From: a virus
Taxonomy: Duplodnaviria > Caudoviricetes
Virus record (IMG/VR): IMGVR_UViG_3300042887_003034
Span: 1 to 55,341 of that record
Direction: 5' to 3' (one strand)
Length of the DNA: 55,341 nucleotides
Under the pieces are notes generated by a model. That model saw only the letters and a program-made list of their open reading frames with translations. It was not told where the DNA came from and did not search any database. Position 1 is the first letter of the stretch; each line of letters starts with the position of its first letter. The position numbers were made by a program, and so were the translations under genes. Positions 4,513 through 28,783 of this stretch are shown piece by piece.

Positions 4513-4543
4513 GGAGTGCCGGGGCTGTGGCTTGTGTGCCACA
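4513..4543. promoter_or_regulatory. Composite element GGAGTGCCG-N4-TGTGGC-N6-GCCACA (first of at least 8 copies, both orientations)
   Basis: Other copies at 10769-10799, 14502-14532 and 24674-24704 (same orientation) and at 12980-13010, 22121-22152, 23100-23131 and 28654-28684 (inverted). Confidence 0.8.
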
Positions 4544-4551
4544 GCCTAGGA

Positions 4552-5169
4552 TCACACGTACTGCATCTGCCGGGGGCTCAGCGGACGCTGGAACCGGGGC
4601 GCCGGGTCCTGTGCCCAGTCGATGATCTGCTGCCGCAGGCTCTTGCGGAAGCCGCTGCGCAGGTTGCTGGTGATCAGCTTGCTGACCTGCGTCCAGAAGC
4701 CCAGCCCCACAGCATCACGCAGGCGCTCCACCTGTTGGCGGGTCAGCCCTGCCTTGCGGGCCGTGTCAGCATCTTGACGGCGCTGGTTGCGGCGCTGCAG
4801 GACTTGGTTGCGGCGCTGCCGGTAGGCCAGGTAAGCCTTGTACTCAGCCTGCACTTCGGGCGTGGCATCCACCGAGGATGCGTAGCAGGGGTAGCTCCAG
4901 CCGCGGGTGGTGGCGAACATGATCTCGTGGGCGGTGCGGCTCACCGGATCCCACACGGTCATGAAGAAGTCGCTGTCGTCGTACATGTTGCGCTCACGCT
5001 CGGCCACGCACAGCCCGTGGTGCGTGGTGTACAGGGTGTCGCCCTGGCGCTGGTCGTTCATGCCGCTGACGCCGGGCAAGGGGCAGTACTCGCCCGGGTG
5101 GAACTCGGTGCGCAGAGTGCGGGCACCGTTGGAGTAGTCAAAGGAAGAACCCAGGTTGATGATCGGCAT
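4552..5169 (-). CDS. Hypothetical phage protein
   Basis: 205 aa ORF with promoter repeat and AGGAG RBS. Confidence 0.75.
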   Translation of the reverse strand: MPIINLGSSFDYSNGARTLRTEFHPGEYCPLPGVSGMNDQRQGDTLYTTHHGLCVAERERNMYDDSDFFMTVWDPVSRTAHEIMFATTRGWSYPCYASSVDATPEVQAEYKAYLAYRQRRNQVLQRRNQRRQDADTARKAGLTRQQVERLRDAVGLGFWTQVSKLITSNLRSGFRKSLRQQIIDWAQDPAPRFQRPLSPRQMQYV

Positions 5170-5424
5170 CGTCGACTCCTTTGTTTCAGTGTCAGTAGTA
5201 TATGATCGATCAATGACCCTGTCAACCGGTGGGTTATTGCTCCTCTACCTCATGCCACACATCATTCCACGGGTTAGAATCGTCGGCTTCATCGGCGTAG
5301 TCCCACGCAGCCTGCGAAGTTTCAAATTCAGCAACCGCGATCCGAATCACATCTCCGTAGTCCCGAACGCATCTCTTTACAACCCACATCATCTGCTCCT
5401 TGTGGAGGTTCAGTGCCAGTGGGC

Positions 5425-5586
5425 TCAGCCCAGGACCAGCGAGTCCAGTTCCACTTCGACCTGCTGCTGCTTCTGCAGGTCGGCGATCTCCTGCAGTTCG
5501 AAGTTGACTTCGATGCGCACGCCCTCGAGGAACTCAGCCCAGAGGTCCTCGCCGTAGAACTCTTCGCAGGTGATCTCGTCGAACAT
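5425..5586 (-). CDS. Small acidic hypothetical protein (MFDEITCEEFYGEDLWAEF...)
   Basis: Translated by hand; AGGAG and promoter repeat upstream; below the ORF-track length cutoff. Confidence 0.65.
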   Translation of the reverse strand: MFDEITCEEFYGEDLWAEFLEGVRIEVNFELQEIADLQKQQQVEVELDSLVLG

Positions 5587-5844
5587 CGTTTTCTCCTTGC
5601 TACAGTTCTTGCAGTATAAGTTCAGTCAGCAGTCCTGTCAACCGCGCTTGCGATCGTTGATCCACAGCAGGATGCTGGCAATGGTCACAGAGATCACAGT
5701 GACCGCTGTGATGGCCAGGGCAGTGCCCGCAATCACGTAGACCAACAGCAGCAGGTTGTCCAGCATCATCAACTCCTCAGTGTCCTTGCAGTATAAGTTC
5801 AGCGAGCAGTCCTGTCAACCGGGGCTGAAGTGCCCCGGTGTTGT

Positions 5845-6198
5845 TTAATCGCCACGCTTGTCAGTGTTCAGCGAGGGCTTGACAGCACGGCGGATTTCGA
5901 CTTCCCTGCGGTGCGCTTCGGCCTTGCCGCGCACAATCTCGTGGACAACGATCTCGATCTCGTTCTTGTCGTTGAGTTGGCGCAGGGCGGCGCAGAGCGT
6001 CCAGTCCTTGCTCTCAGTCTTGGCGCGGTAGAAGTGCTTGGCAGCACGGGCCCGCACACTCTTCAGCACCGTGCTCTCGGTCTTGGCAGTGACGCCAATG
6101 TAGTTCCCACCTGCGACACGGAGTTCGTAGATGATGTGATTGCGGTCGCTGCGCTTCTTGCGGGTTGCTTGGGCTTCGGTCATCGTGTGCTCCATCAT
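5845..6198 (-). CDS. GIY-YIG-like nuclease domain protein
   Basis: IIYEL...NYIGVT, R..KH and AHRREVEI pattern. Confidence 0.55.
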   Translation of the reverse strand: MMEHTMTEAQATRKKRSDRNHIIYELRVAGGNYIGVTAKTESTVLKSVRARAAKHFYRAKTESKDWTLCAALRQLNDKNEIEIVVHEIVRGKAEAHRREVEIRRAVKPSLNTDKRGD

Positions 6199-6243
6199 GT
6201 CAGTAGTATAGCACCCCTCAATGACCCTGTCAAGTGGTGTGAT

Positions 6244-6627
6244 TTACCAGTTGAACTCGCTGCTCAACCCCAGCGCCTGCTGCTCTTCTGGGCTCAACTT
6301 GGCAAACGCTTGCCGCCGCAGGTTGCGTTGACGCTTCTCTTCACGAGCCTCTTCTTCCTTGATTTCCACACGCCAATCCAACTCATGCAGGGCTTCTTGA
6401 TTCTCCGTAGAGTAGGTCAGAGTCAGCTCTACGGAGCGATCACGGCAGCCGTCACGATCGCTCAGGACGAACTTGGCATCGCGGACAGCCAGTTCCCAGT
6501 TAGTCTTTGTGGCACGCTCTAGCATAGCCATCAGCCGTTGCGGGTAGGTAGCAGCCTGCTCTGCTTGGTATGCAGCTCGCTCTGCTGCTTCACGGGCCAG
6601 TCGTTCTGCTTTGGTTTCGCGTGCCAT
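6244..6627 (-). CDS. Hypothetical phage protein
   Basis: ORF with promoter repeat and RBS. Confidence 0.75.
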   Translation of the reverse strand: MARETKAERLAREAAERAAYQAEQAATYPQRLMAMLERATKTNWELAVRDAKFVLSDRDGCRDRSVELTLTYSTENQEALHELDWRVEIKEEEAREEKRQRNLRRQAFAKLSPEEQQALGLSSEFNW

Positions 6628-6686
6628 TTCGTGTGCTCCTTGCTGCTATGTCTGTACTATAGCACCCCTCAAAGACCCTGTCAACC

Positions 6687-7091
6687 TTAGGGCTTTTGGT
6701 GGCACAGGTCCACGGATTCGGAGTAGTAGCCGTTGGACTCGCCCAACCAACGAACGTCCACATAGCCCTTACGGGTAGCGAACTTGTAGAAGGTAAAGGT
6801 GTAGGACTCGAACATTTCGTCCTCGATGTCTGCAGGCACTTCACCTTGAACTTCTTCGGCGATCAGCAAGGGCTCACCTACCAAGTCCTCGAGATCACCA
6901 ACGATGTCGTTGATGTCCACAGACTCACAGCAGGACTGGAAGTGGGTGAACACAAAGCGCTCGCCGTTCTGATCAACGAACACCATCTCACCCGAGCCCA
7001 CCGAACCTTCTACACGAACGAAGGTACGACCAACCATCGAGCGCAGACCTTCTTGGGTATCAACCATATCGTTCCAGTTCAGTTCCATCAT
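6687..7091 (-). CDS. Conserved hypothetical phage protein (HxQxCCExV, WLGESNGYYSE)
   Basis: ORF with promoter repeat and RBS; motif recalled from phage proteins. Confidence 0.75.
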   Translation of the reverse strand: MMELNWNDMVDTQEGLRSMVGRTFVRVEGSVGSGEMVFVDQNGERFVFTHFQSCCESVDINDIVGDLEDLVGEPLLIAEEVQGEVPADIEDEMFESYTFTFYKFATRKGYVDVRWLGESNGYYSESVDLCHQKP

Positions 7092-7155
7092 CTGCTCCTG
7101 TTTGCTTACTGTTCTTGCAGTATAAGCTCAAACAAAGACCCTGTCAAGTGGTGGG

Positions 7156-9460
7156 CTATCGACCGATTGTTTGCTGGCGCTTGAGCAGAGCCCGTTCAGC
7201 GTCAATCAGCGTTTCCACACGGTTGATCAGGTCAACGTAGTAGTCCGAACGATGACGGGCATGGGTCAGCCGTTGATCAAGATCAGCACACTGTTCCAGG
7301 CTATACCGAACACCCAAAAGGGTGTCAATCAGATCGTCCCGGCTGTTAAAGGTAAGATCGCTCATTTCAGCACTCCCCGCGATAGACGACTTCTTGGACA
7401 CCGTAGGGCATGAAATAACTGGCCCGAACCAGTTCTTCGGCATGTTGCTCGTCTTCGGCACGAACTCGCACATAGTCGACAAAGGTGCCCTGATCATCTT
7501 CGCATTCGAAGAACACATCGTAGAATCCCAGAACTGCTTGGTCCATCTCGTCTGCTCCTTGTTTCGCTATGTGTGTATTATACGGCAGGATGGATCAGGT
7601 GTCAACTCCAGATGCGATTTGGGATTTATTGTCAAATCTTCTTTACCTTGCCGAGAACCGGATCGTTGGCAATGTAGCCCTTGTAACCGTTGTCCATATC
7701 CCGGGCGGAACCAAAAGTGTAGATCATTTTGTTGTCGTCAGGGCGAACAAAGACCCATTCGAAACTGCTGTTCTTTACGGTGTAGACCACACTTCCTTCG
7801 TAGAACCTACGGAAAGCATACTCGACCCGAACACGATCACCAGCAGAGAAAACTTGATTCATTTCTTGCTCCGTTATCTAATCAATCTTCTTAGATAGAG
7901 GCCACAGCAGTCAGTGCCACTACGGTCCAAATTGCGATAAGTTGAGCGATGCCAAAGTAGAACAGGGCCCAAACAACAGTACAAAATCCGATCAGTTTCA
8001 GCATGGTCAGCTCCTTAGTGTTCTTGCAGTATAGCACCAAACAAAGACCCTGTCAATCAACCTTTGGGATCAACAGAGTCTTACTCCATAGAAAAATTTG
8101 ACCTATCGGAATGCGCCATGCCGTGTCTTCAAGAATCTCAAAGACCACTGTCTCAGCGGCGTTGTCTACCTTGTATGGACGAAAACGACCTTTTGAACCT
8201 CGGATGATATGCTGTGCCGCTTCATTACTGATCTCCATCAGCATGATGCCGTTTTCGTCCCGAACAATATAACCCACCGTGTGCTCCTTGCTGCGATGTC
8301 TGTACTATAGCAGGAAACAAAGACCCTGTCAACCTCTGAGCTATTTTCTCAGGATGCGTATCTAGTGCGCTCGTACTCGATGTCTCGAATCATCTCGAAG
8401 GCTTGCTCGCAGTCGGCATTCACCTCATCTACGGTCTTTTCATAGATAAAGGCAATCTCACTGCAGGGGACCACATTGTGGTAATCATAGGCGCCGCCCA
8501 TGTAGGCATCATAGATCCTGCGGCCCGCCCGTTCAATGACTGCTTGATAGGTTTTCATCAACGCTCCTTCAGACGCTTCATCACTGCCACAGCCTCGGGG
8601 CTGTTCATAATCTCGCGGAACTTAACTTTGGGATCGTACCACTCACCGGTCTTGCGATCCTTGACCCAGCCCATGTCTTCGCGGAGGTTGGCGGCAAGGC
8701 CTTCTTCCCGGGCCTCACGCTGCTTGGCCCACTTTGCTTCTTGCTTCTTGCCCCACTTCATGGTCTGCTCCTTGCTGCGATGTCTGTACTATAGCAGGAA
8801 ACAAAGACCCTGTCAAGTCTCGGCTCTTTGGTTCTTGATCTTTTCAAGCGCCTACGTAGATTGCAGTCAACCGCAAAGCCAAACTCAGCGCAAAACAGAC
8901 GATACCAAAAATGGAGAGTATCTGTTCAACTCCAGGTTTGGCTTTAGTTGCCCACGCGGTCAGAAAAATGATTCCAACGAGATTGAATATCGAGAGGGCG
9001 AATTCGAAAGTAGTCATGATTTACTCCTTGCTGTCTTGCTTGCTCAGTTCTTGTTCACAGTGGTGTGGCTCTTGAACAGGAGACCGCAGAGGAACAGTAG
9101 ACCCCAGGCTTGGAACCAGGTAATCTCCGGCAGTCCGAAGATCGTAGGCATGAGCCAGTCCCAGAGCAGCATCACGGGCAGACTCATCAGAGCCGCCACA
9201 ACGAACAGAACGAGGATACCACCAACGATAAGACCGATTACGTTCATTTCGAACTCCTTGTTGCGATGTCTGTACTATAGCAGGGATCAAAGACCCTGTC
9301 AACCGAGCGAGTAAGTGTCGCCTCGGCGCACGCCGATCTTGTCCAGCAGGCCGTCGATGACCGTTTGGGACACCACAGCCCGGCCTTCGACGAACCGAGC
9401 GTTAACCAGGTACGAGTACTTGCGGCCGTTGTAGCGGATAGAAACAAAAACCTTCTTCAT
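7156..9460 (-). CDS. Run of about 10 small hypothetical genes (e.g. 7156-7365, 7632-7862, 8053-8277, 8349-8561, 8558-8761, 9044-9247 membrane)
   Basis: Short minus-strand ORFs, each with AGGAG and mostly with a promoter repeat; ATGA overlaps. Confidence 0.65.
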
Positions 9461-9523
9461 TTGGCACTCCTAGTTGCGATGTGTGTATTATAGCGTAGGG
9501 CCTGAACCCCGTCAACTTTTGAT

Positions 9524-10258
9524 TCAGGCCTTGTGCCAATTTCCAGCCACGTAGGTCTTGGCCAACGACAGCGACATCCCCAGCACGGTGACTGCGAAGT
9601 TGACCACCACCGAACTGCCTTCGCCGCGAGCCTTGGCCTGCGCGATACGAGCCCGCACAAGAGCAGCCTTGCTAGCACCCTCGGGCTTCTGAACCGGCTT
9701 CTGAACCGGCACTCCCGTGGTCACAGGCTTTACGGTCTGCACCGGCTGCTCTCCAAGCAGGCTGTAGGCGCTGCTGATGTTGATTGCACCCTTGCCGTCA
9801 CGGAAGCGGTAGACCACACCGCTCTGCACCTTGCGATGACGGGTGGCACTGAGGTGAACAGTGGCCCCGGTGCTGGTGGTGTAGACGTAGGTTTCGCCCT
9901 TGGCGTAGACGACCTTTTCCTTGTGGTAGGTTTCGCCACTGCCGCCCAACCACTGGCAGGTACGGCGCCAGGCCCAACCGTGACCGCGATCGCTGCCGTT
10001 GGCAAAGCAGATCACGTGCGCCAGTTCGTGCGGCACGGTGTCCTTGAAGAGGTGATCCCAGGCCTCGTTCTGCATCATGTCGGTGTTGAACCGCATGAAG
10101 TAGTTCCAACCGCGGCGTCCTGCAATGCCGGCACTGCGACCACGAAGATCGAAACGCACATCGATCTGCGGGATCTTTTGGCCGGGGTGCCCTGCTTCGT
10201 ACTTGGTGATCAGTTCTGCAATCTTGGCACGGACCTGGGCGATGCGCTCTTGAAGCAT
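9524..10258 (-). CDS. SprT-like zinc metalloprotease domain protein
   Basis: LRGRSAGIA, TVPHELAHV (HExxH) and HGWAWRR; start after AGGAG. Confidence 0.85.
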   Translation of the reverse strand: MLQERIAQVRAKIAELITKYEAGHPGQKIPQIDVRFDLRGRSAGIAGRRGWNYFMRFNTDMMQNEAWDHLFKDTVPHELAHVICFANGSDRGHGWAWRRTCQWLGGSGETYHKEKVVYAKGETYVYTTSTGATVHLSATRHRKVQSGVVYRFRDGKGAINISSAYSLLGEQPVQTVKPVTTGVPVQKPVQKPEGASKAALVRARIAQAKARGEGSSVVVNFAVTVLGMSLSLAKTYVAGNWHKA

Positions 10259-10308
10259 TTCAACTCCTTGCTGCAATGTCTGTACTATAGCAGGAGTTGG
10301 AGAGCCTG

Positions 10309-10686
10309 TCAACCGAACTTCTTCAGAATCGGCAGCAGCGCCTCGACCAGTTCGTAGTCCTCGCGAAGCACCGCCTCGCTGGTCAGCGCACGGAGGCTGT
10401 CCACAGCCGAAGTGCGATGCTGGTTGACCTCCACCAACAGACCCATCACTCGCAGGTCACGCACGGCACCGTCGAAACGCTCCTGTGCAGAGACCAGCAG
10501 GCCCGTGGCGTAATCCTCGCGCGCCTCACACTGGATCGCGATCTTATGCACGCCGGGCACTTCGCTGAGGTCCTTGGCATCCTTGAGCCCGAGATTGGTC
10601 AGCGTCCGGAGTGTCTTGATCACTGCGATCTTGTTGATCTGGCCGTAGTCGTTGGGAAAGTTGACGGTGATGCTCTTGGGGATCAT
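10309..10686 (-). CDS. Protein with a ribosomal protein bL12 (L7/L12) C-terminal-like domain
   Basis: NKIAVIKTLRTLTNLGLKDAKDLSE matches the bL12 signature KxxVIKxVRxxTGLGLKEAKDLVE. Confidence 0.7.
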   Translation of the reverse strand: MIPKSITVNFPNDYGQINKIAVIKTLRTLTNLGLKDAKDLSEVPGVHKIAIQCEAREDYATGLLVSAQERFDGAVRDLRVMGLLVEVNQHRTSAVDSLRALTSEAVLREDYELVEALLPILKKFG

Positions 10687-10807
10687 TTCATTTACTCCTG
10701 AATGCGTTTTGCAATGTCTGTACTATAACAGGGAACAAAGACCCTGTCAACTGGTGAGACTTGGGTATGGAGTGCCGATGATGTGGCAGAAATGCCACAT
10801 CATCTGT

Positions 10808-11113
10808 TTAGGCAATGCCTCGCGTATCCGCTACTTCGAAGTGGAGACTCAGTTGCGGTTCCGAGTTCTTGAACTTGTGAATCCGTGCAACGAATCCGCC
10901 TGTGGAGCAGGAAGTGGATTCACCTTCTTTCTCGTAGAGTCGAATCGCAGCGTGAATCATTTCCAGCGCAGTGGCCTGCAGTTCTTCCACAGTGGGGACG
11001 GTCGGGGTCCACCACCAGGTCCAGTTCAGCGCGGTCATGACCTTTTGAACTCGATCCCACTCGAATCGTTCCATGATGTCAGCAGTTTCAGCGATCCAGG
11101 TCTTGCTCATCAC
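10808..11113 (-). CDS. Hypothetical phage protein
   Basis: ORF with promoter repeat and RBS. Confidence 0.7.
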   Translation of the reverse strand: MMSKTWIAETADIMERFEWDRVQKVMTALNWTWWWTPTVPTVEELQATALEMIHAAIRLYEKEGESTSCSTGGFVARIHKFKNSEPQLSLHFEVADTRGIA

Positions 11114-11161
11114 GTGCTCCTTGTTGCAATGTCAGTAGTATAGCGCCGAACAATGACCCTG

Positions 11162-11431
11162 TCAAGTGATGGGGATTTCTTCCGCTTCCCATCGTTCGAG
11201 GCTAAAGTCGTAGCCTTCTTCCTCGAGTTCTTGAACTGCTTCGTTAAATGCGCTCTGAAAGTCCCAAACCAATTCAGCCCTACGAGTATCCTTCTTTCGC
11301 TTTACTGCGGTTCCTTTTTGGTATACTGACCAAACGTGTTCTTCACAGTAACTTCGATCTTTGACAGTATCTTTTCCGCAATAGTGATAAGGCACTGTGG
11401 TTTGATCACCGATCCATTGACACCCTTTCAT
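11162..11431 (-). CDS. GcrA C-terminal-domain-like Cys/His protein
   Basis: CQWIGD....HYCG......SYCEEH...VYQ resembles GcrA CxWPxGDP..FCG...PYCxxH...AY. Confidence 0.55.
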   Translation of the reverse strand: MKGCQWIGDQTTVPYHYCGKDTVKDRSYCEEHVWSVYQKGTAVKRKKDTRRAELVWDFQSAFNEAVQELEEEGYDFSLERWEAEEIPIT

Positions 11432-11649
11432 TTCATACTCTCCTTGAGCAGTTTCTTAATCTTTTCCTGCTCGTTATCCGGCATTGATAGGAATTTAATT
11501 ACTCCTTCAGTTGCGCCGGCAATTCTACCAATTCGTTCCACAGCCCAGTATGTTGCAAAGAAACACCAGAACTGCCAACTATCGACGGTATACCCTACTG
11601 CGGTGAGTAGGGCACCCACCGTGGCCCAAAGTAGTATAGGCTGTACCAT
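11428..11649 (-). CDS. Small membrane protein
   Basis: Hydrophobic N-terminal half; translationally coupled to its neighbours. Confidence 0.65.
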   Translation of the reverse strand: MVQPILLWATVGALLTAVGYTVDSWQFWCFFATYWAVERIGRIAGATEGVIKFLSMPDNEQEKIKKLLKESMK

Positions 11650-11650
11650 A

Positions 11651-12526
11651 TTATCGTTTCATGCAGGTCGTAGCAGCCATGGATTTCCAAGTCTTAGGAA
11701 AACTCTTGCGCAGATCAGCCAGTTTCAATACCATGCGCAGGCTGAGTTCGCGCAGTTTCTTGGCATTATCTTCGACAAACTTGATCAGTTCGACTTTGAC
11801 TGCATCTTCAAAATCATAACGATCCAGCATGCCGCAGTCGCGAACAACCTGCTTGATACGCAGCAGTTTCTCGCGATTAGTATCCATCTGCAGGTCGATA
11901 TAATGGCAACGGCTTTCCAGCGCATCCAAATGCACTCGCAGTTTCTTACTGCGAACGTGCTCGAACTTGATATTGGTGATGAAAATGGCAGCGCCCTTAA
12001 ATTCGAAACGGTCCGGAATACCTTCGCTGCGCAGCAGTCGGCTATCAGTATTCCACGAGATGAAACGACGCTCGGAACTGTCCAAGGCACCCTTGAGAAT
12101 ATTCAAACTCAGTTCTTCGCCCAGAATAGTATCGCAGTCGTCGAAAACAATCACCGAACCCTTTTCGCTGAATTCGAAGAGTTTGGCATAAAGGCCAATG
12201 CTGCTCATTGCACCCTTGACCACTTCAAACCTGGGCTTGCGTTCGGCCAGTTTGTCAAACAAACCGTCCTTGTTAAGTACTGCCTCAACGCCGTAGGATT
12301 TGCCAACACCGGGCGGGCCAGAAACAATCATTGCACGAACGTCGCCGCTGCGCACAGCACGAGTCATTTCGTCCAGGATTGCAAAACGCTCGGCCAGTCG
12401 ATCGTAGATCTGCTGATCAGTTTCTTTGGCAACTTCGGCTTCACGCTTGTTGATAGCGTCTTGGTCGAAATCGAAAGTAATAACTTCGCCTTTGCTGGGC
12501 TTCTTGACGGCTGCGGTGCGCGGCAT
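11651..12526 (-). CDS. AAA+ family ATPase
   Basis: Walker A GPPGVGKS, Walker B IVFDDCD, sensor ITN, arginine finger ALESR. Confidence 0.85.
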   Translation of the reverse strand: MPRTAAVKKPSKGEVITFDFDQDAINKREAEVAKETDQQIYDRLAERFAILDEMTRAVRSGDVRAMIVSGPPGVGKSYGVEAVLNKDGLFDKLAERKPRFEVVKGAMSSIGLYAKLFEFSEKGSVIVFDDCDTILGEELSLNILKGALDSSERRFISWNTDSRLLRSEGIPDRFEFKGAAIFITNIKFEHVRSKKLRVHLDALESRCHYIDLQMDTNREKLLRIKQVVRDCGMLDRYDFEDAVKVELIKFVEDNAKKLRELSLRMVLKLADLRKSFPKTWKSMAATTCMKR

Positions 12527-12592
12527 ATTCTATCCTCTGTGTTAAGTAAAGTCTGCATTATACAGGGGAATTAATCCCCTGTCAATGACTTG

Positions 12593-14720: not shown

Positions 14721-14751
14721 GATATATAGTTTCCTTTAGTTTATTAAGAGT

Positions 14752-19171: not shown

Positions 19172-19261
19172 GGAAAACTCCTTTGTGTGTGTTTGTCAAA
19201 TCTGCGAACCGTTTCGCATTGTCACTACTATAGCACTGGATTGGGCGTTTGTCAACCAGTT

Positions 19262-21190
19262 TCAGTGTTGTTTTTCTGCAACCACATCTGAAATCAACCG
19301 ATTCTGTGCAGCCTCATCCCACTCGTCGAAGGGTTTGCAACCTTGCTCCGCAATCCACTGAAGCACCAACTCAACGGGGCAGTCTAAGACTTTGGCAATA
19401 GATTTGGCTCTATGCCCGTCAATATAGAGTTGCTCAATATCGTAGGCCAGTTCTGCCATCTTGCTCATAGACCCACCCCGTCTTCCATTTCTTCATCTGT
19501 GAGTTCGATTAGTTTAGCATTAGCAAAGCGTCCGAGGAGGAATACCAAATCTTGTACCCCTAGACGATGACCCTCAAAAATAGTGTAATCGCCGTCCTTA
19601 ATATGGATCCAATCGCCACTGCCCAGGCTGTTAGTAATGACCTTGATCATTCTTCTCCCTCTCGGGCTTCGATAGCAAAGGCTTCGGTCAGCGGCACGAA
19701 GAACCGGTCTTCCGAAACATACCACTTACCGTCACGGCGCAGAATGTAGTTGTATTCTTCGAACTGGGCCTCGCGCAGATATTCTGTGTAATTCTTAAAG
19801 CGGCGTGCTTCACAACCAGGTTCGCCACGATCACGACCGTAGAAAGTAGTGAAATTGCGCCGGCGAGTCTGTTCAGCAAAAAACTCATCAGTGCCGTACT
19901 TGTGCGGATTATCGAAATCGTGCTTTTCGCCAATTCCCGGACCCAGCGAACTCATATCGCCCAGGTCAATGAGACTGCGCAGTTTGAACGGATCCGAATA
20001 GTGTTCCTGCAGAATCTTACCGTTGAAACTGAGGTAACCATCCCAGTGGCAGTAGACCTGCTGGACAGTACCGTCTGCGAATTCAAGGGCGATGGTAGAA
20101 CGAGTAGCCATTTAGTGCTCCTTAGCGTGTCAGTGTCTAAAGATTATATGACAGGGGCTGTGCCCTGTCAACATTAACCCTTGCGCTTCTCGGGCTTTTC
20201 CTTGACTTCCTTGACAGCGATCTTGCCGCTGTAGGCATTGCCTGCACGGTGGATCAAGCCAGTCTTGGTTACAGTCACAGTACCGCCCTGATGCGTCTTC
20301 CAAGTGTCGCCAACTTTCATTTCGTGCTCCTTTGTTTCAACGTGAATACAGTATAACAGGATTGGAAATCCCTGTCGTCTCTAGGGTTAATAGTCTGCTA
20401 CCAGTTCGCCGCTGCCGTTTTCCCAAACAAAGATCTTGGTTACAGCCATGCCGTTCTCGGCATCCGGATCAGGATAGACGATTTTGTAGACGAATTGATG
20501 TCCGTTTGAGATGCCCAGGAACTCTGAACGCAGCACAGTATCTGTAGGGTATTCCTTTCGAAGCAGCCCTTCTAGCGTGAGATTGTGCAGATAAGCACAG
20601 CGGCGGATAGTGTCTGCTGAAATCATAGTGCGCCCTCCAGTTCCATAACATCATAAGTCAAGTCGTCAACCAAGTCCTGGATGCGATTGTGGGTTTCAAA
20701 GCAGACATCCGTGTCGCCTAGTGCTTCTTGGATCCACGCATCTGCGTTTTCCAGGGCGGCGATTGCCATACGCAGGCGGGTTGCTTTTTGTGCGTTTGTC
20801 AACATTGTTTGCTCCTTACTGTCCTTGCAGTATAACAGGGAACAATGTCCCTGTCAACTGGCGGGTTTTTGGTGCTTACACTAACACGTCAAGCATTTCG
20901 TACACAGCACTCTGTGCTTCTAATGCTTGTTCGCCATTTTGGGCAATCAGTTGTGTGTTGAGCATTAGCATACGAATTGCAAACTGAGTTCTCCCATATC
21001 CCGAAAACGGATGGAATTTAAGTTTGCGTTTATTGCAATTTACAGCAACTTGGTAAAAGTGTTGCAAAGCATTAGCAAAGTCCTTGTTATTGATGCTTTC
21101 TGCCAAAAGGTCAAGCAGTTGATGTTGCTGTGCAATAAATTTTTGGGACATATGCTGCTCCGTTGCGTTACTGTCCTTGCAGTATAGCAC
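19262..21190 (-). CDS. Run of hypothetical genes, including 19647-20111 (MATRSTI...YCHWDGY family), 19262-19468, 20387-20626 and 20623-20805
   Basis: Tiled minus-strand ORFs with promoter repeats and RBS. Confidence 0.65.
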
Positions 21191-21248
21191 CAGTCAAAGA
21201 CCCTGTCAACCGATGGGGTATTGCTGCTACACAATACCCCATCACTGT

Positions 21249-21719
21249 TTATGCTACTGCAAAAGCAGCCCGCACTTCTTTTGCAAGTGCATAAGCGTCA
21301 TAACTAGCACGCCCCTCGTCCTGCATACCCCACTCGCTGCCGCTGACATCCTCAGCAGCCTCTGCGCTAAAGCCCGCAGCAGTGAGTATCTCGCGCAGCC
21401 GAGTATCAAAGCCGTGCTCCCAGTAAAACTCTCCCATTACTCGCGTAACGTCGTCGTCACTGTGCAAATTACGCAGCAGCAGCGTTCCCATCGTTTGTGC
21501 GTTCTCGTTATTGCTCAGTCCCTCAATATCCCAGTTAACAGCAAGGTCGCCGTCCGGATACCACTCTTCGTCAGTATCCTCATCTGCCCACTCGTTACTC
21601 TTTGCAATGTACATGCTTACAGTCTCAACGAGCACACCTGCAAACTCTTCGTTTACGGGGATTTCCAAGTTGTAGCCCTCGTCAGTTTCAGTAATGTACT
21701 GTGCAAACTTTGCAGTCAT
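21249..21719 (-). CDS. Acidic hypothetical protein
   Basis: D/E-rich ORF; AGGAG upstream of ATG 21719. Confidence 0.7.
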   Translation of the reverse strand: MTAKFAQYITETDEGYNLEIPVNEEFAGVLVETVSMYIAKSNEWADEDTDEEWYPDGDLAVNWDIEGLSNNENAQTMGTLLLRNLHSDDDVTRVMGEFYWEHGFDTRLREILTAAGFSAEAAEDVSGSEWGMQDEGRASYDAYALAKEVRAAFAVA

Positions 21720-21797
21720 CTCGCGCTCCTGTGTTAACAAGTCAGCAGTATAGCACTACACTTGCGCATCGTCAAGTGTAGTGCCCGTGCCACAGTG

Positions 21798-22061
21798 TTA
21801 CAGTCCTTGCTCAATTAGCCGCGCAACATCCGCCTTGTAGTGCTTGTCGCGTATAGTGTACAGCACATTCCAATTGTCATCGCACAGTAGCAAGTCCTTC
21901 GTCACTTTGTCGCGCATGTAAGCGCCATAGTGTTCGCCAAGCCACCAATCTCCGTGTGCCCATTCGCCTTCAAGTTCAAGTCGCACTTTACGCTTTTTGC
22001 TAGCATACACTGCGCCCGCATTGCTCTCTTTTGCAACAAAGTCTTTGTCCGTCGTTTGCAT
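21798..22061 (-). CDS. Hypothetical protein
   Basis: ORF with promoter and RBS. Confidence 0.65.
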   Translation of the reverse strand: MQTTDKDFVAKESNAGAVYASKKRKVRLELEGEWAHGDWWLGEHYGAYMRDKVTKDLLLCDDNWNVLYTIRDKHYKADVARLIEQGL

Positions 22062-22153
22062 TTTGCTGCTCCTTTGTGTTAGTGTGCAAGCATTATAGCA
22101 CTATGCACAAAAAAAGCAAGTGTGGCGTATTAGCCACACCCCCCGGCACTCCC

Positions 22154-22420
22154 TCAGTAGTCGCCCAGATCGTACTGGTCCTCGTAGGACGAATCCAGGT
22201 AACTGTCCTCGCCGCCCTCGGGCTCGTAGGGCTCGTCGTGATCACGCTCCAGGCTGTCGTGATGATAGCCTTGCTCGTACTGATCATCCATGATGTGATC
22301 AGCGGCTTCGTAGACCCAGCTCAGAGGCACGTCATACTTCTGAGCGATCTGATGATAACTCAGTTCGCCTCGGAGGATTTCGTCTTGCAGGTCCATTTCC
22401 AAATCACTGATACGGCTCAT
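22154..22420 (-). CDS. Highly acidic small protein
   Basis: D/E/Y-rich C-terminus. Confidence 0.7.
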   Translation of the reverse strand: MSRISDLEMDLQDEILRGELSYHQIAQKYDVPLSWVYEAADHIMDDQYEQGYHHDSLERDHDEPYEPEGGEDSYLDSSYEDQYDLGDY

Positions 22421-22485
22421 CGTCGGCTCCTTTGTTGCAATGTCAGCAGTATAACAGGGGCCAAAGCCCCTGTCAACTGCTATGT

Positions 22486-22698
22486 TCAGGCCAGCACCTC
22501 GCGGATGTTGTGCAGCGACACCATCTCCACCTGCCGGGGGCCCACCTGGACACCGATAGCGGTCCAGGTGCTGTTGCCCACCTTGACCACACGCTTCTCG
22601 GTGACCATGCCCACCTCAAAACTCAGCGGACGGCGCTCCTTGTTGAAGCGACCCAGTTGAACAACGGAACCCGGGGTAACAGCAGCGAACTTGACCAT
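22486..22698 (-). CDS. Hypothetical protein, copy 1 of a duplicated cassette
   Basis: Near-identical to 27538-27750, including flanks. Confidence 0.8.
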   Translation of the reverse strand: MVKFAAVTPGSVVQLGRFNKERRPLSFEVGMVTEKRVVKVGNSTWTAIGVQVGPRQVEMVSLHNIREVLA

Positions 22699-22788
22699 TT
22701 TGTGCTCCTTTAGCAGTTAGGTCGTTGGGGGAAACTTGTTTAAGTGTCAGCAGTATAACAAAGTTCAAAGACCCTGTCAACCGCTGTG

Positions 22789-24605
22789 TTATTGTTGCTC
22801 TTGTTCGAACTCGGCGATCATCTGCTCGGCCAGTCGCCGGTGCTGAGCACTGGAGGTATGCACCAGGCCGACATAGTGACCGAAATCGTTGCAGCCGATC
22901 TCAGTGACACGAGCCCGCTTGGCGCCCAAGCGATGCAGCAGATCTTCGATCTGCTTGAACTCGTGATAATCGGAAACTTCGACGGTCGTGGGCAACTTGA
23001 TCGTCAGTTCGGTGTCGGTTTTGATCTTCATCACACAGTCCTTTGCTACAGTTCTTGCAGTATAAGTTCTTTGAAAGACCCTGTCAAGTGGCGGGGTAAT
23101 GTGGCATCACTGCCACACCCCCCGGCACTCCCTCAGTAGTCGTCTCCTGCGGAGCCGTAGTCCTCGTCAGTACCCCAGCCCGCGGAGGCCAGCGCGGAGG
23201 CGTGATCACCGTCCATGCTGTCGTTGTACTCGCCCTCACGCTCTATCTCGTCCTGCAGTTCTTCGCTGAGGTTCATGAAGTCCTCGCAGGTGTTGAACAG
23301 TTCCTGGAAAGCACGCCGCTCGTCCTTGTGCATCTCCAGCAGGAACTGCGGGCCCTCTTCCCGCATAGCGTCGATGATCTGACGCATGGCCAGCAGGGTG
23401 TTGTTGCACATGCAGTAGCTCATGTTCGGGAAGTTGCTCATCTCGCGCTCCTTTGTTACAGTTTCAACAGTATAAGCTCAAACAAAGACCCTGTCAACTG
23501 GTGGGTCTTTAGACGTATACCTTGCAGATGCGCACTGCAAAGGCACGGCGCTTGGCATAGGGCATGGCGCGGTATTCTGCACTCTCATCGTACATACGGT
23601 CGCAGATGTAGTCTGCAAGGCTTTCAGCACACAGGGGTTCACCTGCTCCAGCACAGGCCTGCTCGAGGTCGTAATAGACTTCGTTGATGATCCTACGAAT
23701 TTGCTGTTCCATACTTGCTCCTTTAGCGTTGGTGCAGTATAACAGGGACCGAAGTCCCTGTCAACTGGTGGGGCTTTACAGCCGCTTCCAGCCCATTGAA
23801 GCGCAGAGGTAGTCCTGGCCGTTTACGTTGACGATATCGCCCACGCTGACGCTGCGGAAATGACCCCAACGCTCCTCGCGCTCTGCTTGCCGGCCGGGAT
23901 TGTTGGTAAGGTCGAAAATCTCCTCAGCAGCAGCCTCGCCCTGAAGTTCAGTGACCACACAGGGACCGGTCCTGCGGTAGTGACCCTCTGCAAGCAGACC
24001 GCGAGCAGTGGCTTCCTGGTCCTTGCGGAAGTAGAACTCGCCCATGAACTGCTCGTTGACCAACTTCACCGCTGCAATCATCGCTGACTCCTTTGTTACA
24101 GTTCTTGCAGTATATCGTCAGAGCAAACTCAAGTCAACCGTAGGGACTTTGAACAGGTCTTCTTCGTCCAAGAGCAGAACTTCGGCAGTCCTGCCAAAGA
24201 CCTCCATGGGCTTGTCCAACTTGACCGTGTGCTGAACAGTGCCGCCGTACTTGACACGGCTTTCGGTAACCAGCCCACTGACAGCATAGGCCTGCAGGTA
24301 CATGCCTGCAACTCGTTGACCTTCACGGTTCCACATTATTCCACCTCACAAAGGTTGATACGATACATCTGATTGTAGTGGTTCTCGTGCATGATCACGT
24401 AGGGGCCGTAGTCGTACACGGGCAGACCATTGCTGCGAGCGCACCATTCCATGTCGGTGACACTGGAATTGCTACGACTGATTCGAGTCCAGCCTGCGTT
24501 CTTGTTGCTGGCCCGCATGCCAACCATTGCACCCTTGCGGGTCTTGTAGCGAGCCAGCACATCGGGCTTGCCTCCCTGATTGCGACACAGTAGTACGTAG
24601 GACAT
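22789..24605 (-). CDS. Run of hypothetical genes (22789-23034, 23133-23441 acidic, 23509-23712, 23776-24081 YodL-like RSVSVGDIV, 24118-24336, 24336-24605)
   Basis: One promoter repeat per gene or gene pair. Confidence 0.65.
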
Positions 24606-24712
24606 CGCGTTCTCCTTAGTGTTTTTGCAGTATAGCAGAACTCAAAGACCCTGTCAAGTCTCGGGCTATGGGCGGAGTGCCGGAGGTGTGACATTGCTGC
24701 CACACCGTTGGA

Positions 24713-25285
24713 TTACTGATTAGATTCTTCGTCAGCCCGGGCTTCTTCTTCCCACTGAGCCATATTTTCGGAGATAGCAAATTGCTCGTCGACATCTGAG
24801 TCGATCAAACTGGAAACCGTTTCGGCGGTCATGTCACTGAGGTTCCAGAAATCGTCTAAGCCGTTGATCCAGCGACCGCAGAAAGCCATGCCGGGCTCGT
24901 AATACATGGCATCAATATCAAAACCCATTTCTACGAGTTGAGCATAAGCCCCAATGGGAGGCGACCAAGCACTATCGAAGAAAGCGCTGATCGAATTGTC
25001 GTCCATACGCTCGATACCTCCAAGTTCAATATCCCACTTGGTACCCCAATTGGCCACATTCCAATCATACCAGTCCTTGTATCCAAACTGTTCGAGGTTG
25101 GCTGCTTGTTGTGCAGCCTGTGCGGCTTGCTTGTCCTCACCGGGATAGCCTACAACAGTTTCTGTCAAGGGCTCAGGAGTCGGAAAGAATTCCATAAACA
25201 GCCCGTCCTTGCCTTTGAGCACTCGCTCAATCATGGCCGGATCTTTGTGACGAATCTGAATAAAGTTATTGCACCAATTAGGCAT
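24713..25285 (-). CDS. DUF1281/YubB ferredoxin-like domain protein
   Basis: MPNWCNN start, WYDWNVANWGTKWD, FDSAWSPP and YYEPGMAFCG. Confidence 0.7.
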   Translation of the reverse strand: MPNWCNNFIQIRHKDPAMIERVLKGKDGLFMEFFPTPEPLTETVVGYPGEDKQAAQAAQQAANLEQFGYKDWYDWNVANWGTKWDIELGGIERMDDNSISAFFDSAWSPPIGAYAQLVEMGFDIDAMYYEPGMAFCGRWINGLDDFWNLSDMTAETVSSLIDSDVDEQFAISENMAQWEEEARADEESNQ

Positions 25286-25439
25286 TTCAGTTCTCCTCAG
25301 GAAGGTAGGCTTCAAGCACACTGTCGGGCAGATGTGCAATCAGTTCTTGGATTGCGGTCATATCCCCATTGTCAACATCTCGTGCAATCTGCTCGAGCAC
25401 ATCGTCTAGCAACTGTTCGCGAATGGTCTTGGCCATAGT

Positions 25440-26872
25440 TTACTCTCCTACACGATCGTAGAAAGCGGTCTCAACAAACTTGTAGATCTGATCTTTGCTG
25501 CCCCAGGAATCAGCAGGCATCTGGTTGTAGACATACCGGACAATGTCAGGCAGGGCAGCAAGGTTCTCGCTGTCTGCACGTCCCACAGCACCGAACAGAT
25601 CGTTGCTGAGTACAGCCATCAAGAAGCCGCCGGGCAGCATCTTGTGCTCGACATAGCGGTCCAGGGCGGCCTTAGTGTGTGCTGGAATCATCGTCGGCTC
25701 CTATGTGTTACTGTTCTTGCAGTATAGCGTCAAGCAGCGGCGCTGTCAACCGTTCAATCAGTAGTGACTGCGGTTGCCCACATAGTTGAAGTCGTCCATG
25801 GGATCGGACTCTTCGTCCGGCAAGCCCACAAGTTCAAGCAGATCGTTCTTGCGAACAAACTCCTCAACGTCTGCTTCGCTCATCCAGCCCACGAGATCGT
25901 TGATCAGATTGTCCTTGTCAAACAGACCCTGTTCCACTGCGCTGAGCAGGGCATGACTGAAAACACGACTACGGCGGTAATTGCTCATCACTGGCTCCTT
26001 TGCAATGCCTGTACTATAACAGGGAACAATGACCCTGTCAAGCACGAACCATCTTAAACCCTGCGGCCTTCAGTACTTGTATCGCACGAGCGCAGTCATC
26101 GTCGATGGTGTTGTCTCGACTATAAATTGCATCGTTGAAGATGTCAGCGGCATCGCGGGCCCAGTTGGACAACTCCTTGTATCCTGGGACGGACATAAGT
26201 ACTTCGTCAACTTCCTCAATGTCCCAATACTCGTAGGGTTCATCCAAAAACTGTTGGCCATATTTCTGCACATAGGTGCAGATGAGATTTCGAAACAGGG
26301 AGTTTGCAGCCAGTGCTTGACTGAGATCATCGAGATCAAGACCAATGAAATCAAATAACTCGATATACTCATGATCTTGAGAAAAATCTTGGTAATGCTC
26401 ATCCCTGAATCTATCTGCAACAGTTTCTGCCACTGTTTCGACTTGCTCGGCACTGACAATAGTTTTGACAACAAGATCTTTCATTTTCAACTCCTATATT
26501 GAATTAAACGGCGGGCTTGCCCGACTCGACATCAACTTCAACAGTGACGTCGCTTAAACGGCCGTCAACGTCATATTCCAAACGCCGCACTCGTGCAGTG
26601 ACTCGGGCATTGCGCAGATACTGCAACATCTTTTCTTTGAAATACTCAAAATGATCTTCAAATGTGTCAGCGGCCTGTTCGCTGAGATTTTGAAATACCC
26701 GCTCAATATCGTCCTTGGACTTATACTCGTCAAACATGTCGACGACCATGTCAGTATTGCCCTCTGCCATGTCAACGATCATCAAAGTGGCCATTTTGCG
26801 AATGGCATCGTCGCTGCCGTAAAGGGCGTCGCGGGTTTTGACAGTTTCAATGCCGCTTTGAAAAACAATCAT
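25440..26872 (-). CDS. Hypothetical genes 25440-25691, 25758-25988, 26038-26490, 26504-26872
   Basis: ORFs with RBS and promoter repeats. Confidence 0.65.
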
Positions 26873-27034
26873 TTCACGCTCCGTTGTGTGTCAGTGTGTC
26901 TACTATAACAGGAAACAAAGACCCTGTCAAGTCTCGGGTTAAAGATGAGCAGCCGTCACGGCTTTCTGCTGCTCTCCCCCCGCGCCCGGGCCTTCCCGGA
27001 TTGTCCGAACCATCCGATGTGTGGGGGATAAATT

Positions 27035-27118
27035 TGGTGGAGTGTGATGGATTCGAACCACCGTGCTGTTAGGACCTGATTTACAGTCAGGCGCAATCGA
27101 CCACTCTGCCAACACTCC
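27035..27118 (-). tRNA. tRNA-Tyr(GTA)
   Basis: GGAGTGT acceptor, anticodon loop CTGTAAA, long variable arm, GTTCGAATC, CCA end. Confidence 0.92.
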
Positions 27119-27219
27119 AAATCTTTACCATAGTTCAGCACACTGCCCGCGCCCGCAAGCCCGGCATATCTACCAATACGTCTGACTGTGGTAGCAGTCA
27201 GTGCTAATGCGCTGAACTA

Positions 27220-27294
27220 TGGTAGGAGCACAGGGATTCGAACCCTGGACCAACGGATTAAAAGTCCGCTGCGCTACCGCTGCGCCATACTCCC
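27220..27294 (-). tRNA. tRNA-Lys(TTT)
   Basis: GGGAGTA acceptor, anticodon loop CTTTTAA, GTTCGAATC, CCA end. Confidence 0.92.
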
Positions 27295-27537
27295 AAGTTC
27301 TTTAAATCTCCAAACTCTCCAGTTCAGTGGCCCGTTGCAGATCTGCCACAACCTGGCACTCTGCGTTCACAAGCCAAAAGCCCCGACCTTCTTCGATGTC
27401 ACGGAGCCGATTGTACTCGTACTCGAACTCCATGATATCGTCTTGTGTCATGTCTTCTGGATACCACATGCTCTGCTCCTTGCTGCTCACTGTGAACACA
27501 GTATAACAGGGGACAAAGCCCCTGTCAACTGCTATGT

Positions 27538-27750
27538 TCAGGCCAGCAACTCGCGGATGTTGTGCAGCGACACCATCTCCACTTGCCGGGGACCCACCTG
27601 CACGCCAATAGCGGTCCAGGTGCTGTTGCCGATCTTGGTGATCTCCTTGCTGACCACCATGCCCACCGAGTGGCTCAGGGGACTGCGATCCTTGTTGAAG
27701 CGACCCAGTTGGACCACGGAACCCGGGGTAACAGCAGCGAACTTGACCAT
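27538..27750 (-). CDS. Hypothetical protein, copy 2 of a duplicated cassette
   Basis: Paralog of 22486-22698. Confidence 0.8.
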   Translation of the reverse strand: MVKFAAVTPGSVVQLGRFNKDRSPLSHSVGMVVSKEITKIGNSTWTAIGVQVGPRQVEMVSLHNIRELLA

Positions 27751-27845
27751 TTTGTGCTCCTTTAGCAGTTAGGTCGTTGAGGGAACGTTGTGTTTCAATG
27801 TGTCTACTATAACAGAACTCAGAGACCCTGTCAAGTGCTGGGTCT

Positions 27846-28130
27846 TTACATGCTCCAGTAAGTCTCACTGCTGGGACTGCAGAAGTAGGGCACATCGTAG
27901 CGCTCCCAGAACTGCACACCAGAGATGTGGTTGACTCGCAGAACCAAAGTTTCAAAGAACTCCAAGCGAAACTGGTCCTTGGGATACTGGCCCGAACTGC
28001 GCAGGTACATGACCAAGTCCATCATAGCAGTACCAGAGTAACCTGGATAATCCTGCTTGCTGACTAACTTTTCACCAGTGCGGCAGCGCCGATCCAGTTT
28101 GTAGATTTCCAGTGTATAGCCTTGTTGCAC
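27846..28130 (-). CDS. Hypothetical phage protein (PYFCSPSSETYWSM C-terminus)
   Basis: ORF with promoter repeat and RBS. Confidence 0.7.
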   Translation of the reverse strand: MQQGYTLEIYKLDRRCRTGEKLVSKQDYPGYSGTAMMDLVMYLRSSGQYPKDQFRLEFFETLVLRVNHISGVQFWERYDVPYFCSPSSETYWSM

Positions 28131-28192
28131 CTTCTGCTCCTAGCGTGTTACTGTTCTTGCAGTATAACAGAGTTCAAAGACCCTGTCAACTA

Positions 28193-28573
28193 CTAGAGAT
28201 TGTAGGGAAAGGTCAACTCCCAAACAGCATAGTGGAACAAGGGCTCGGGACCCATAGGATCAGCACCACCCAAATAAGTGTACTTGGCAATGTTGTCATT
28301 GTGTCTCAATATGCCTTCTACATCGCTGATCAAAAAGTCATAGGACTTTTTGTCCCTTTGCAGTGCAAGATTGTCAATGTGAACTTCCAAATGTGCTTTG
28401 AATTCGTTGACCCATTTTGTAGTAATTCTATAGTGTTTGGCTTTGAAAGCCCTGGGAAACTCTCGAGTAATTGCACTAATACTGTGCTTGAGAGCCCGTT
28501 CTTTTCTAGGAGAAACCTTTGTAGGTTCTGTGATTTCGTTTAGTCGCATTAGATTCACCTCGTCTGTTGCCAT
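28193..28573 (-). CDS. Hypothetical protein
   Basis: Lower-GC ORF; TAAATA immediately upstream; possible true start MRLNEITE. Confidence 0.6.
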   Translation of the reverse strand: MATDEVNLMRLNEITEPTKVSPRKERALKHSISAITREFPRAFKAKHYRITTKWVNEFKAHLEVHIDNLALQRDKKSYDFLISDVEGILRHNDNIAKYTYLGGADPMGPEPLFHYAVWELTFPYNL

Positions 28574-28783
28574 TATTTATTGCAGTCTACGAACTTAATT
28601 GCAGTGTGAGCCAAGTATAGCACTAGTCGCTGACGCTGTCAAATTCTGAATTTTGTGGCATCTCTGCCACACCGCCGGCACTCCGCCTGTGGCTTCTCCG
28701 CCACGATCGTTGTGAATCTGCCACTGTTGTGAATCCGCCACTGTTGTGAATCCGCCACGATCAACTGCAAACGCGAATCTGTC

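Follow-up and report, generated by a model that had tools for sequence, protein, structure and literature searches.

Background

Composite cassettes of a stem-loop and a sigma70-type promoter, termed promoter-early stem-loops (PeSLs), have been described in the ORFan-rich hyperplastic regions of T4-like phages, with examples in RB49/phi1, PST/T4 and nt-1/KVP40 (PMC2839356, PMC4122927). According to the passages of these reports that deal with the cassettes, terminator or attenuator activity and recombination into mini-circles were established by experiment, and the stems are often of the type GGGG...CCCC, the published forms being GN-loop-CN, A3-4G3-loop-C3T3-4 and AGNA-loop-TCNT (PMC2839356, PMC4122927). 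In the corresponding passage of one report, the authors speculated on a DNA-binding protein that targets the stem-loop (PMC2839356). Here, a repeated element from an early-gene island of the viral contig IMGVR_UViG_3300042887_003034 is analyzed. The window is the whole stretch of 55,341 nucleotides, with an estimated completeness of 15 %, and positions given without a further label refer to it. The first-pass annotation of this sequence had described an orientation-independent, two-part DNA site, in which a fixed 9-mer lies next to the dyad TGTKGC-N6-GCCACA. On balance, the element probably represents the stem-loop part of PeSL-type cassettes, which here occupy the hyperplastic region of early genes in a jumbo freshwater phage of the T4-like group.

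The layout that characterizes PeSLs was found at this locus: a T4-like genome (by way of the relative G006), repeats of promoter, Shine-Dalgarno sequence and small open reading frame (ORF), and a stem-loop adjacent to the promoter. As in the cassettes portrayed in the two reports, the region is ORFan-rich and hyperplastic within a T4-like lineage, and a near-consensus sigma70 promoter, a Shine-Dalgarno sequence and an ATG precede almost every small gene. The stem-loop likewise follows the previous stop codon just upstream of the promoter and contains a G-run and a C-run in its stem. One clear case of an indel between near-identical relatives (G011 and the window, at 5827) may be a further parallel. 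In contrast to the stems given in those passages, which differ in sequence, the stem-loop sequence is strictly conserved here across many diverged phages. It also departs from them in having two nested helices that include two wobble pairs and a CxC mismatch that never varies, and in its frequent half elements with a fixed 9-10-mer on either strand. Cassettes of promoter and stem-loop are known already from the PeSLs; what is new is a sequence-conserved nested palindrome rather than any GC hairpin. A full-text literature search with motif strings yielded only primers and unrelated uses among the matches listed, and nothing describing this element was found in the literature on PeSLs and jumbo-phage hairpins.

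Results

Anatomy of the palindrome in orthologous loci

Since the pattern scans had fixed the stem in advance, an unbiased sample was drawn from 80 homologous loci (53-100 % identity), comprising the region after the stop codon of a gene for a DUF2201 metallopeptidase/VWA-like protein. In G006, a relative of 353 kb and 98 % completeness, the element follows this gene, which in turn neighbours a gene for a MoxR-like AAA protein. All three parts, from the left arm through the hairpin to the right arm, occur in a single orientation in 36 distinct orthologous sequences, in the order [N]AGTGCC(G/A)G, G-rich linker, TGTGGC-N6-GCCACA, 0-14 nt and (G/A)(G/A)CCCCGCTGCT. The full unit is an imperfect palindrome of ~50 nt; its outer left arm, AGTGCC(G/A)G with a G-run, corresponds to the 9-mer. 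The right arm consists of a C-run with GCTGCT in the relatives and with GCCACT, i.e. CCCCGCCACT, in the window. The proposed two-part site has to be revised accordingly, since the 9-mer is one arm of a longer palindrome and not an independent second half-site.

The right arm reads CCCCGCTGCT in 31 of 34 orthologous copies. The exact 9-mer of the first-pass annotation is present in 3 of the 34, the conserved core being AGTGCC, and 25 of them start between -1 and +6 nt from the stop codon. The standard element is missing in four orthologous sequences, three of which (L260, L270, L303) have just GGGGC-loop-GCCCC and GCTGCT, while L272 has a variant left arm. Homologues of lower identity (53-55 %) do not have it either, nor do a few others. 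Where protein identity is 75-100 %, the element is conserved in its sequence, beyond its structure.

Base-pairing potential

The outer arms can pair as AGUGCCGGGG x CCCCGCUGCU through A:U, G:C, U.G, G.U, the CxC mismatch, C:G and four G:C pairs. With the CCCCGCCACT of the window copy at 23100, both wobbles become Watson-Crick pairs (U:A and G:C) and the CxC mismatch is kept. Paired cells amount to 91.1 % in 37 sequences, compared to 27-65 % when the partner is slid. A covariance model applied to all fetched loci recovered 61 distinct complete copies, with 90.8 % of cells paired. In G006 and in the window, the model finds one complete copy each. In the 61-copy alignment, four pairs are changed on both sides and the covariation score exceeds that of 500/500 shuffles. 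Compensatory variants of the inner stem, TGTTG/CAACA and TGTTGT/ACAACA, are present as well. RNAalifold favoured a shorter outer register, AGUG/CGCU; the longer one was kept, as it is the only register in which the copy in the window itself can pair. A GNRA tetraloop was considered on the basis of A-GNRA-T in 4/8 window copies on the transcribed strand, but this idea was dropped because the orthologous loops are A/T-rich, TTTTTA being the commonest (10/34).

Copies in the window

The 9-mer GGAGTGCCG is exact at nine sites (4513+, 10769+, 14502+, 24674+, 22144-, 23123-, 28676-, 48207- and 9707-). With up to one mismatch it occurs 20 times, compared to 6.44 +/- 2.52 in shuffled sequences, none of 100 shuffles reaching 20. 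The dyad TGTKGC-N6-GCCACA with up to one mismatch gives 20 strand-matches, compared to 0.63 +/- 0.97 expected. The reported occurrence of both parts was thus confirmed. They are separated by 4-5 nt, the tenth base is mostly G, and the 6-nt spacer of the dyad is different in every window copy. The copies and related hairpins are:

23084..23132, minus strand: complete copy, the sole one in the window (covariance model, 48.9 bits, E 1.9e-9), with left arm GGAGTGCCGGGGGG, inner hairpin TGTGGCA-GTGA-TGCCACA and right arm CCCCGCCACT touching the -35 box TTGACA
22121..22152, minus strand: left arm and inner hairpin, then a T7 run; the only copy resembling an intrinsic terminator
28654..28684, minus strand: left arm and inner hairpin without right arm; promoter TTGACA-N17-TATACT 10 nt downstream
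28688..28705, unstranded: second dyad with 1 mismatch, CGTGGC-GGAGAA-GCCACA in minus-strand reading
12980..13010, minus strand: degenerate left arm GCAGTGCCG and hairpin TGTGGC/GCAACA; poor fold
27333..27363, minus strand: degenerate copy AGTGCCAG-N2-TGTGGC-AGATCT-GCAACG (covariance model, 16.7 bits, E 0.32)
4513..4543, plus strand for the 9-mer: perfect copy of inner hairpin and right arm only
10769..10799, plus strand: arrangement as at 4513, the stem reaching 12 bp via the linker (GATGATGTGGCA/TGCCACATCATC)
14502..14532, plus strand: arrangement as at 4513, second arm degenerate (ACAACA)
24674..24704, plus strand: arrangement as at 4513, arm variant TGTGAC, with a G.U pair on the transcribed strand (minus) but not on the other
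5827..5856, plus strand: degenerate copy GAAGTGCC-CCGG-TGTTGT-TTAATC-GCCACG
48187..48215, minus strand: exact 9-mer, hairpin with another stem (ATGCTGGC/GCCAGCAT)
15844..15861, unstranded: dyad-only hairpin TGTGGC-AGATAG-GCAACT (minus-strand reading), upstream of the promoter at 15813
15255-15272, unstranded: similar dyad-only hairpin

Perfect element copies are those at 4513, 10769, 22121, 23100 and 28654, and by the covariance-model search all window copies besides 23084-23132 are partial. The complete copy folds into a hairpin of ~23 bp (-33.1 kcal/mol, z -3.5). At 22121, the following promoter is the variant TTGCTT-N17-TATAAT. The transcribed minus strand of the copy at 4513 reads hairpin-N4-CGGCACTCC-N17-TTGACA. 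The positions listed by the first-pass annotation are right; the copies at 24674, 14502, 12980 and 28688 carry one or two arm changes. Not on its list are the degenerate copy at 27333..27363, directly upstream of tRNA-Lys, and the dyad-only hairpins at 15844-15861 and 15255-15272. The supposed degenerate copy outside the island, at 48187..48215, has an exact 9-mer and a different stem. It begins 11 nt past the stop codon of a plus-strand IF-1-like gene, from which it reads stop-hairpin-CGGCACTCC, and it faces, in convergent arrangement, a gene for an HNH endonuclease with its terminator. The IF-1-like gene (47957-48175, plus strand) encodes a phage homologue of IF-1 (Pfam eIF-1a, 93.6 bits). 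The exact 9-mer at 9707 lies on the minus strand within the gene for a SprT-like protein (Pfam; 9524-10258, minus strand), where, at ~9680-9715, it is followed by the direct repeat CCGGTTCAGAAGCCGGTTCAGAAGCC and has no hairpin.

Orientation of the element

The exact-pattern set contains 118 instances in 61 distinct contexts, including the window. In 30 of the 61 contexts ("sense"), the promoter lies downstream on the same strand, and the right arm is present in 22 of these 30. In another 23 ("inverted"), a promoter on the opposite strand reads away from the 9-mer at a distance of 5-24 nt, and the right arm is present in none of them (0/23); the remaining eight are unclassified for orientation. 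On the transcribed strand, both classes have the same order of hairpin, C-rich arm (CCGGCACT, or CCCGCTGCT/CCCGCCACT) and promoter. In the "sense" class the 9-mer represents the left arm, and in the "inverted" class it represents a right arm in its perfect-complement form. The 9-mer can appear on either strand because many copies retain a single outer arm, while the order of hairpin and promoter is unchanged. The orientation puzzle thus comes down to which outer arm of the palindrome survives. The argument that the element flips while transcription does not, and is therefore a DNA site, fails: the other arm of the palindrome is the near reverse complement of the 9-mer, and both classes present hairpin, C-rich arm and promoter on the transcribed strand. 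More generally, a fixed word found on both strands beside a dyad can represent the two arms of a larger palindrome, which calls for caution in reading such motifs.

The early-gene island

The G+C content is 50-60 % at ~4060-28930 and 30-45 % in the flanking core genes. G006 shows the same contrast, with 0.48 in its island and ~0.41 otherwise, which suggests a different origin of the island or different constraints acting on it. About 77 small ORFs are encoded on the minus strand of the island and have strong ribosome-binding sites of the AAGGAGC type, and almost every gene has a near-consensus promoter of its own:

4023..28642, minus strand: array of 50 sigma70-type promoters (TTGACA-N16-18-TAnnnT), each before a small gene

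Among these promoters, TTGACAGGGTCTTT with up to one mismatch is present in 31 minus-strand copies, and 54 promoter-like sites were counted in 4000-23999, compared to 14.8 expected. As the first-pass annotation had stated for the -35 boxes, all island copies of the element lie between the preceding stop codon and the next minus-strand -35 box. The 9-mer and the dyad occur together within 75 nt upstream of 7 of the 50 consensus promoters, and additionally at the variant promoter of the 22121 copy. A dyad-like hairpin is found at three further promoters and other hairpins at others, e.g. at 21209, 18029 and 26930.

Three tRNA genes lie among the small early genes, all on the minus strand: tRNA-Arg(TCT) at 14752-14826, tRNA-Tyr(GTA) at 27035-27118 and tRNA-Lys(TTT) at 27220-27294. 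In relatives, a copy of the element lies between an apparent tRNA gene, recognized by eye, and the following promoter. Rfam models at gathering thresholds matched only these three tRNAs in the window, and at E <= 5 three orthologous loci gave only two chance snoRNA matches, which lie off the element. For the region 20000-29000, no RNA sequencing run was listed as a match.

Iteron array and plasticity

At the upstream head of the island (28654-28759), the 9-mer and two dyads are combined with three 17-bp iterons, and the GTGSC cores follow one another at intervals of 17/17/20/11/12/11/11 bp:

28709..28759, unstranded: three tandem 17-bp repeats GTTGTGAATC[T/C]GCCAC[T/G], each with the GCCAC arm core

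This array is length-polymorphic, as one extra unit of iteron and dyad (37 bp) is present in a close relative (L152:250-560) and in two lake runs. Octamers of the form [ACT]GTG[GC]C[AG]G number 39, compared to 14.6 +/- 3.2 expected. Just upstream of the array, a 48-codon ORF with a strong ribosome-binding site (28784-28930, minus strand) encodes an extremely acidic, D/E-rich peptide. DnaA-box-like 9-mers flank the element in relatives, at L166:290-400 and L234:7330-7400 (~327.35 kb in G006). The words TTATCCACA, TTATGCACA, TTGTTCACA and TTATACACA follow each other at an 11-bp phase, with TGTGAATAT and TGTGGATAA inverted, and the array is located upstream of the promoter for a homologue of the window gene 5845-6183.

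G011, whose sequence matches that of the window at 99 % identity along 3.8 kb, has a perfect element and an extra 135-codon ORF where the window has its degenerate copy at 5827. The extra ORF (L236:1966-2373, plus strand) contains a motif that resembles, by eye only, the ribosomal L7/L12 domain, and the window ORF 10309-10686 (minus strand) matches the C-terminal domain of L7/L12 (Pfam, 36 bits). Within the window gene 22154-22420, a 30-bp in-frame indel at 22377 distinguishes the window from a close relative and two lake runs. Four lake runs contain many contig joints in the island, which may be repeat artefacts because they lie within promoter repeats and have sides of just 21-59 nt. No strand-changing joint was found among the joints listed (15 of 92).

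Distribution and lineage

The exact 21-base pattern was found in 26 viral and 70 metagenome stretches, which bears out the claim of a conserved, sequence-specific unit. Its neighbouring genes are unrelated from phage to phage. Only two hits were found in 596 Gb of bacterial genomes, on contigs of 3 and 20 kb from metagenome-assembled genomes (MAGs); an origin from host repetitive extragenic palindromes (REPs) was rejected, both of these exact matches being on short MAG contigs. Relatives carry few exact 9-mers, with 1-2 on each of five contigs of 43-162 kb and three in G006.

G006 encodes T4-type proteins, namely a Gp23 major capsid protein (320 bits) and a portal protein (Portal_T4/gp20, 354 bits). 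Among the 77 island proteins of the window, 15 have a homologue in G006, all of them within the G006 island at 310-327 kb, which holds 6 of the 8 dyads and 24 of the 48 consensus promoters of that genome. Some G006 dyads stand beside promoters without a 9-mer. The virion protein of the window is 66 % identical to that of the T4-like cyanophage S-RIM32. As far as these genomes show, the element is a feature of a lineage of ~350-kb T4-like freshwater (lake) myoviruses, i.e. of the phages rather than of their hosts. Among isolated phages, two window stretches of 9-10 kb had no megablast match, and blastn with the 71-nt element gave only an 18-nt chance match.

Other genes in the window

A run of large genes in the part with ~30 % G+C (34944-43563, plus strand) is flanked by proteins without an assigned family. 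Its genes 37770-39152, 39149-40378, 40371-41618 and 42421-43563 have radical-SAM matches in PHROG, and 34944-37223 has only a weak Pfam radical-SAM match of 19.4 bits, below the cut-off. At 1546-3293 (minus strand), genes for AlgH-like (DUF179), 5'-deoxyribonucleotidase-like and 2OG-Fe(II) oxygenase proteins are located beside a DnaB-like helicase gene.

Discussion

The PeSL-type reading as a whole is considered moderately probable. For an RNA (or single-strand) hairpin, it draws on the compensation in the inner stem, the outer helix that depends on wobble pairs and the link to the stop codon. The full unit lies between a stop codon, which it follows at 0-6 nt, and the next strong promoter. 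In the proposed mechanism, read-through RNA from the upstream gene would fold into a hairpin of 17-23 bp. The hairpin may attenuate or end read-through, or it may protect the 3' end or mark it for processing, and the next promoter would thereby be insulated. At the DNA level, the conserved block of stem-loop and promoter could serve as homology for the gain, loss and exchange of cassettes. The RNase III hairpins between the early genes of the T7 mRNA and the lambda sib/tI retroregulation hairpin are two-part helices of ~20 bp that contain a mismatch or an internal loop, and the element is similar to these in that its short hairpin can be lengthened by flanking arms.

A number of observations weigh against this interpretation. 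The strict arm sequence with free loops looks more like protein recognition than like a plain hairpin. The full element is present at only 8 of about 51 promoter junctions, which also distinguishes it from the cassettes as described in the PeSL passages, and it is therefore not needed at every cassette. Most alignment columns are invariant, so the covariation is thin; the outer helix varies mostly on one side, and the 61 copies are related sequences whose alignment was fitted to the covariance model. The sense strand folds at -21.8 kcal/mol and the antisense strand at -21.0 kcal/mol, the former being better in 25 of 36 non-independent sequences. The asymmetry of G.U pairs in the inner stem, six on the transcribed strand versus two, is not significant. 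In addition, the window has no capsid gene, its T4 affiliation deriving from relatives and one structural protein, and the joints from lake metagenomes, with their short sides in promoter repeats, prove nothing.

The strongest alternative, possible but doubtful, is that a protein of the phage or the host binds the double-stranded element in a sequence-specific manner and regulates or organizes the early-gene island. Such a protein would recognize GTG(G/C)C cores that recur as direct and inverted repeats at a distance of about one helical turn. The conserved arms around free 6-nt spacers, within and between phages, are consistent with this, as are the enriched octamers, the regular phase and strain-variable unit number of the array at the island head, and the G006 dyads beside promoters without a 9-mer. 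The three small proteins named as candidates by the first-pass annotation (18119-18388, 11162-11431 and 18731-19171) are all conserved in G006, with a weak winged-helix match and a weak GcrA-like match among them, and the DNA-binding protein raised in the PeSL passage (PMC2839356) would fit as well. However, AGCAGCGGGG, the reverse complement of the right arm CCCCGCTGCT in 31 of 34 copies, is not of the form GTGSC and yet pairs via U.G and G.U, and the compensatory stem variants preserve pairing rather than sequence. The distance to the -35 box ranges from 5 to 60 nt, some relatives have a terminator in between, and near-consensus promoters need no activator. The regulator site proposed by the first-pass annotation retains in its favour the conserved arms, varying loops and an iteron-like GTGSC array at 28.7 kb, but no cognate protein was identified. 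TGT-N12-ACA geometry is known from the operators of TyrR and PpsR/CrtJ. The 18-bp dyad shares their TGT...ACA ends and 6-bp variable centre, but it lies inside a longer palindrome with changes that preserve pairing, and no such regulator was identified.

Somewhat less likely than such a regulator site is that a protein encoded by the lineage specifically recognizes the nested palindrome by its invariant arms and free loops, its conserved CxC mismatch and its two wobble pairs, which are conserved as well. This protein would be a structure- and sequence-specific nuclease, a recombination mediator or an RNA-binding factor. RegB (PF10715) gave no match, which is uninformative, as the family matched no control genome either. 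A link to HNH endonucleases was rejected, as the element accompanies just the four closest distinct homologues (at least 74 % identity) of a 131-aa protein (L035:1523-1918, minus strand). This protein is HNH-like by eye and has no Pfam match, and one "inverted" group follows such a protein. The first hairpin arm is made up of the last codons of the L035 gene, CGT GTG GCG TAA, whose stop codon falls in the loop. For the genes before the copies at 4513, 10769 and 24674, the Pfam scan gave no HNH match. A lambda-type nut site (boxA and boxB) was rejected as well, as the 9-mer is paired in complete copies and lies on the non-transcribed strand in 23 of the 61 contexts, and the element sits at gene ends upstream of promoters.

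An ordinary family of intrinsic (factor-independent) terminators spread by duplication is improbable. The location after stop codons, the stable hairpin and the 22121 copy with its T7 tract, which is called terminator-like, would suit such a family. However, 7 of the 8 window copies lack the T-tract that defines this class, and the island shows no enrichment of terminator-like sites (24 versus 19.3 expected). In the relatives L243, L245, L248, L250 and L256, a canonical stem with a T-run follows after the element, and sequence is kept as well as structure across the homologues. The view of the first-pass annotation that the element is not a plain terminator therefore holds.

A mobile or recombinase-targeted hairpin of the REP/RAYT (REP-associated tyrosine transposase), IS200/IS605 or integron attC type, or a tyrosine-recombinase core site, is very improbable. 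The fixed flanking motif in both orientations, the location between genes and after stop codons, the unrelated neighbours in different phages and the indel at 5827 in G011 recall REP/RAYT systems and other mobile elements. Recombinase core sites consist of arms around a 6-bp spacer, which the dyad resembles. On the other hand, Y1 transposases (PF01797) were absent from all five records searched, including the 98 % complete G006, with the control positive in six genomes. The same five records had no tyrosine (PF00589) or serine (PF00239) recombinase, with controls positive in 14 and 12 genomes. The low copy number of one to three exact 9-mers per relative contig, the near absence from bacterial genomes and the lack of a strand-changing joint among those listed do not match such elements either. 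Recombination between the sites would be blocked because their spacers all differ, and the recombinase site suggested by the first-pass annotation is not supported.

Least probable is a role in replication initiation through DnaA, whose box core CCACA resembles the arm GCCACA. At least six direct TTATNCACA-like 9-mers at an 11-bp phase and two inverted ones lie directly upstream of the element in L166, with similar motifs beside the G006 copy at 327.4 kb; in the window, T-rich runs and iterons that contain TGTGAATC are present at 28.7-29.0 kb. However, the cumulative GC skew of G006 tracks gene direction without a switch at the locus, its strict boxes (39 versus about 22 expected) form no cluster of three within 300 bp, the dyad arm invariably carries G at the position at which the box requires T, and the window loops are not A/T-rich.

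Conclusions

If a protein of the lineage recognizes the palindrome, the shuffling of cassettes or the control of early-transcript boundaries would be an active, targeted process, integron-like without an integrase, and no mere by-product of homology. The ~50-nt palindrome would offer a defined substrate for the question of protein recognition that the PeSL authors left open, and a concrete, searchable marker of cassette boundaries in these genomes. As PeSL-type modules, the elements described here would show that such cassettes, described in T4-like coliphages and vibriophages from culture, also occur in an uncultured lineage of T4-like freshwater phages with genomes of ~350 kb.

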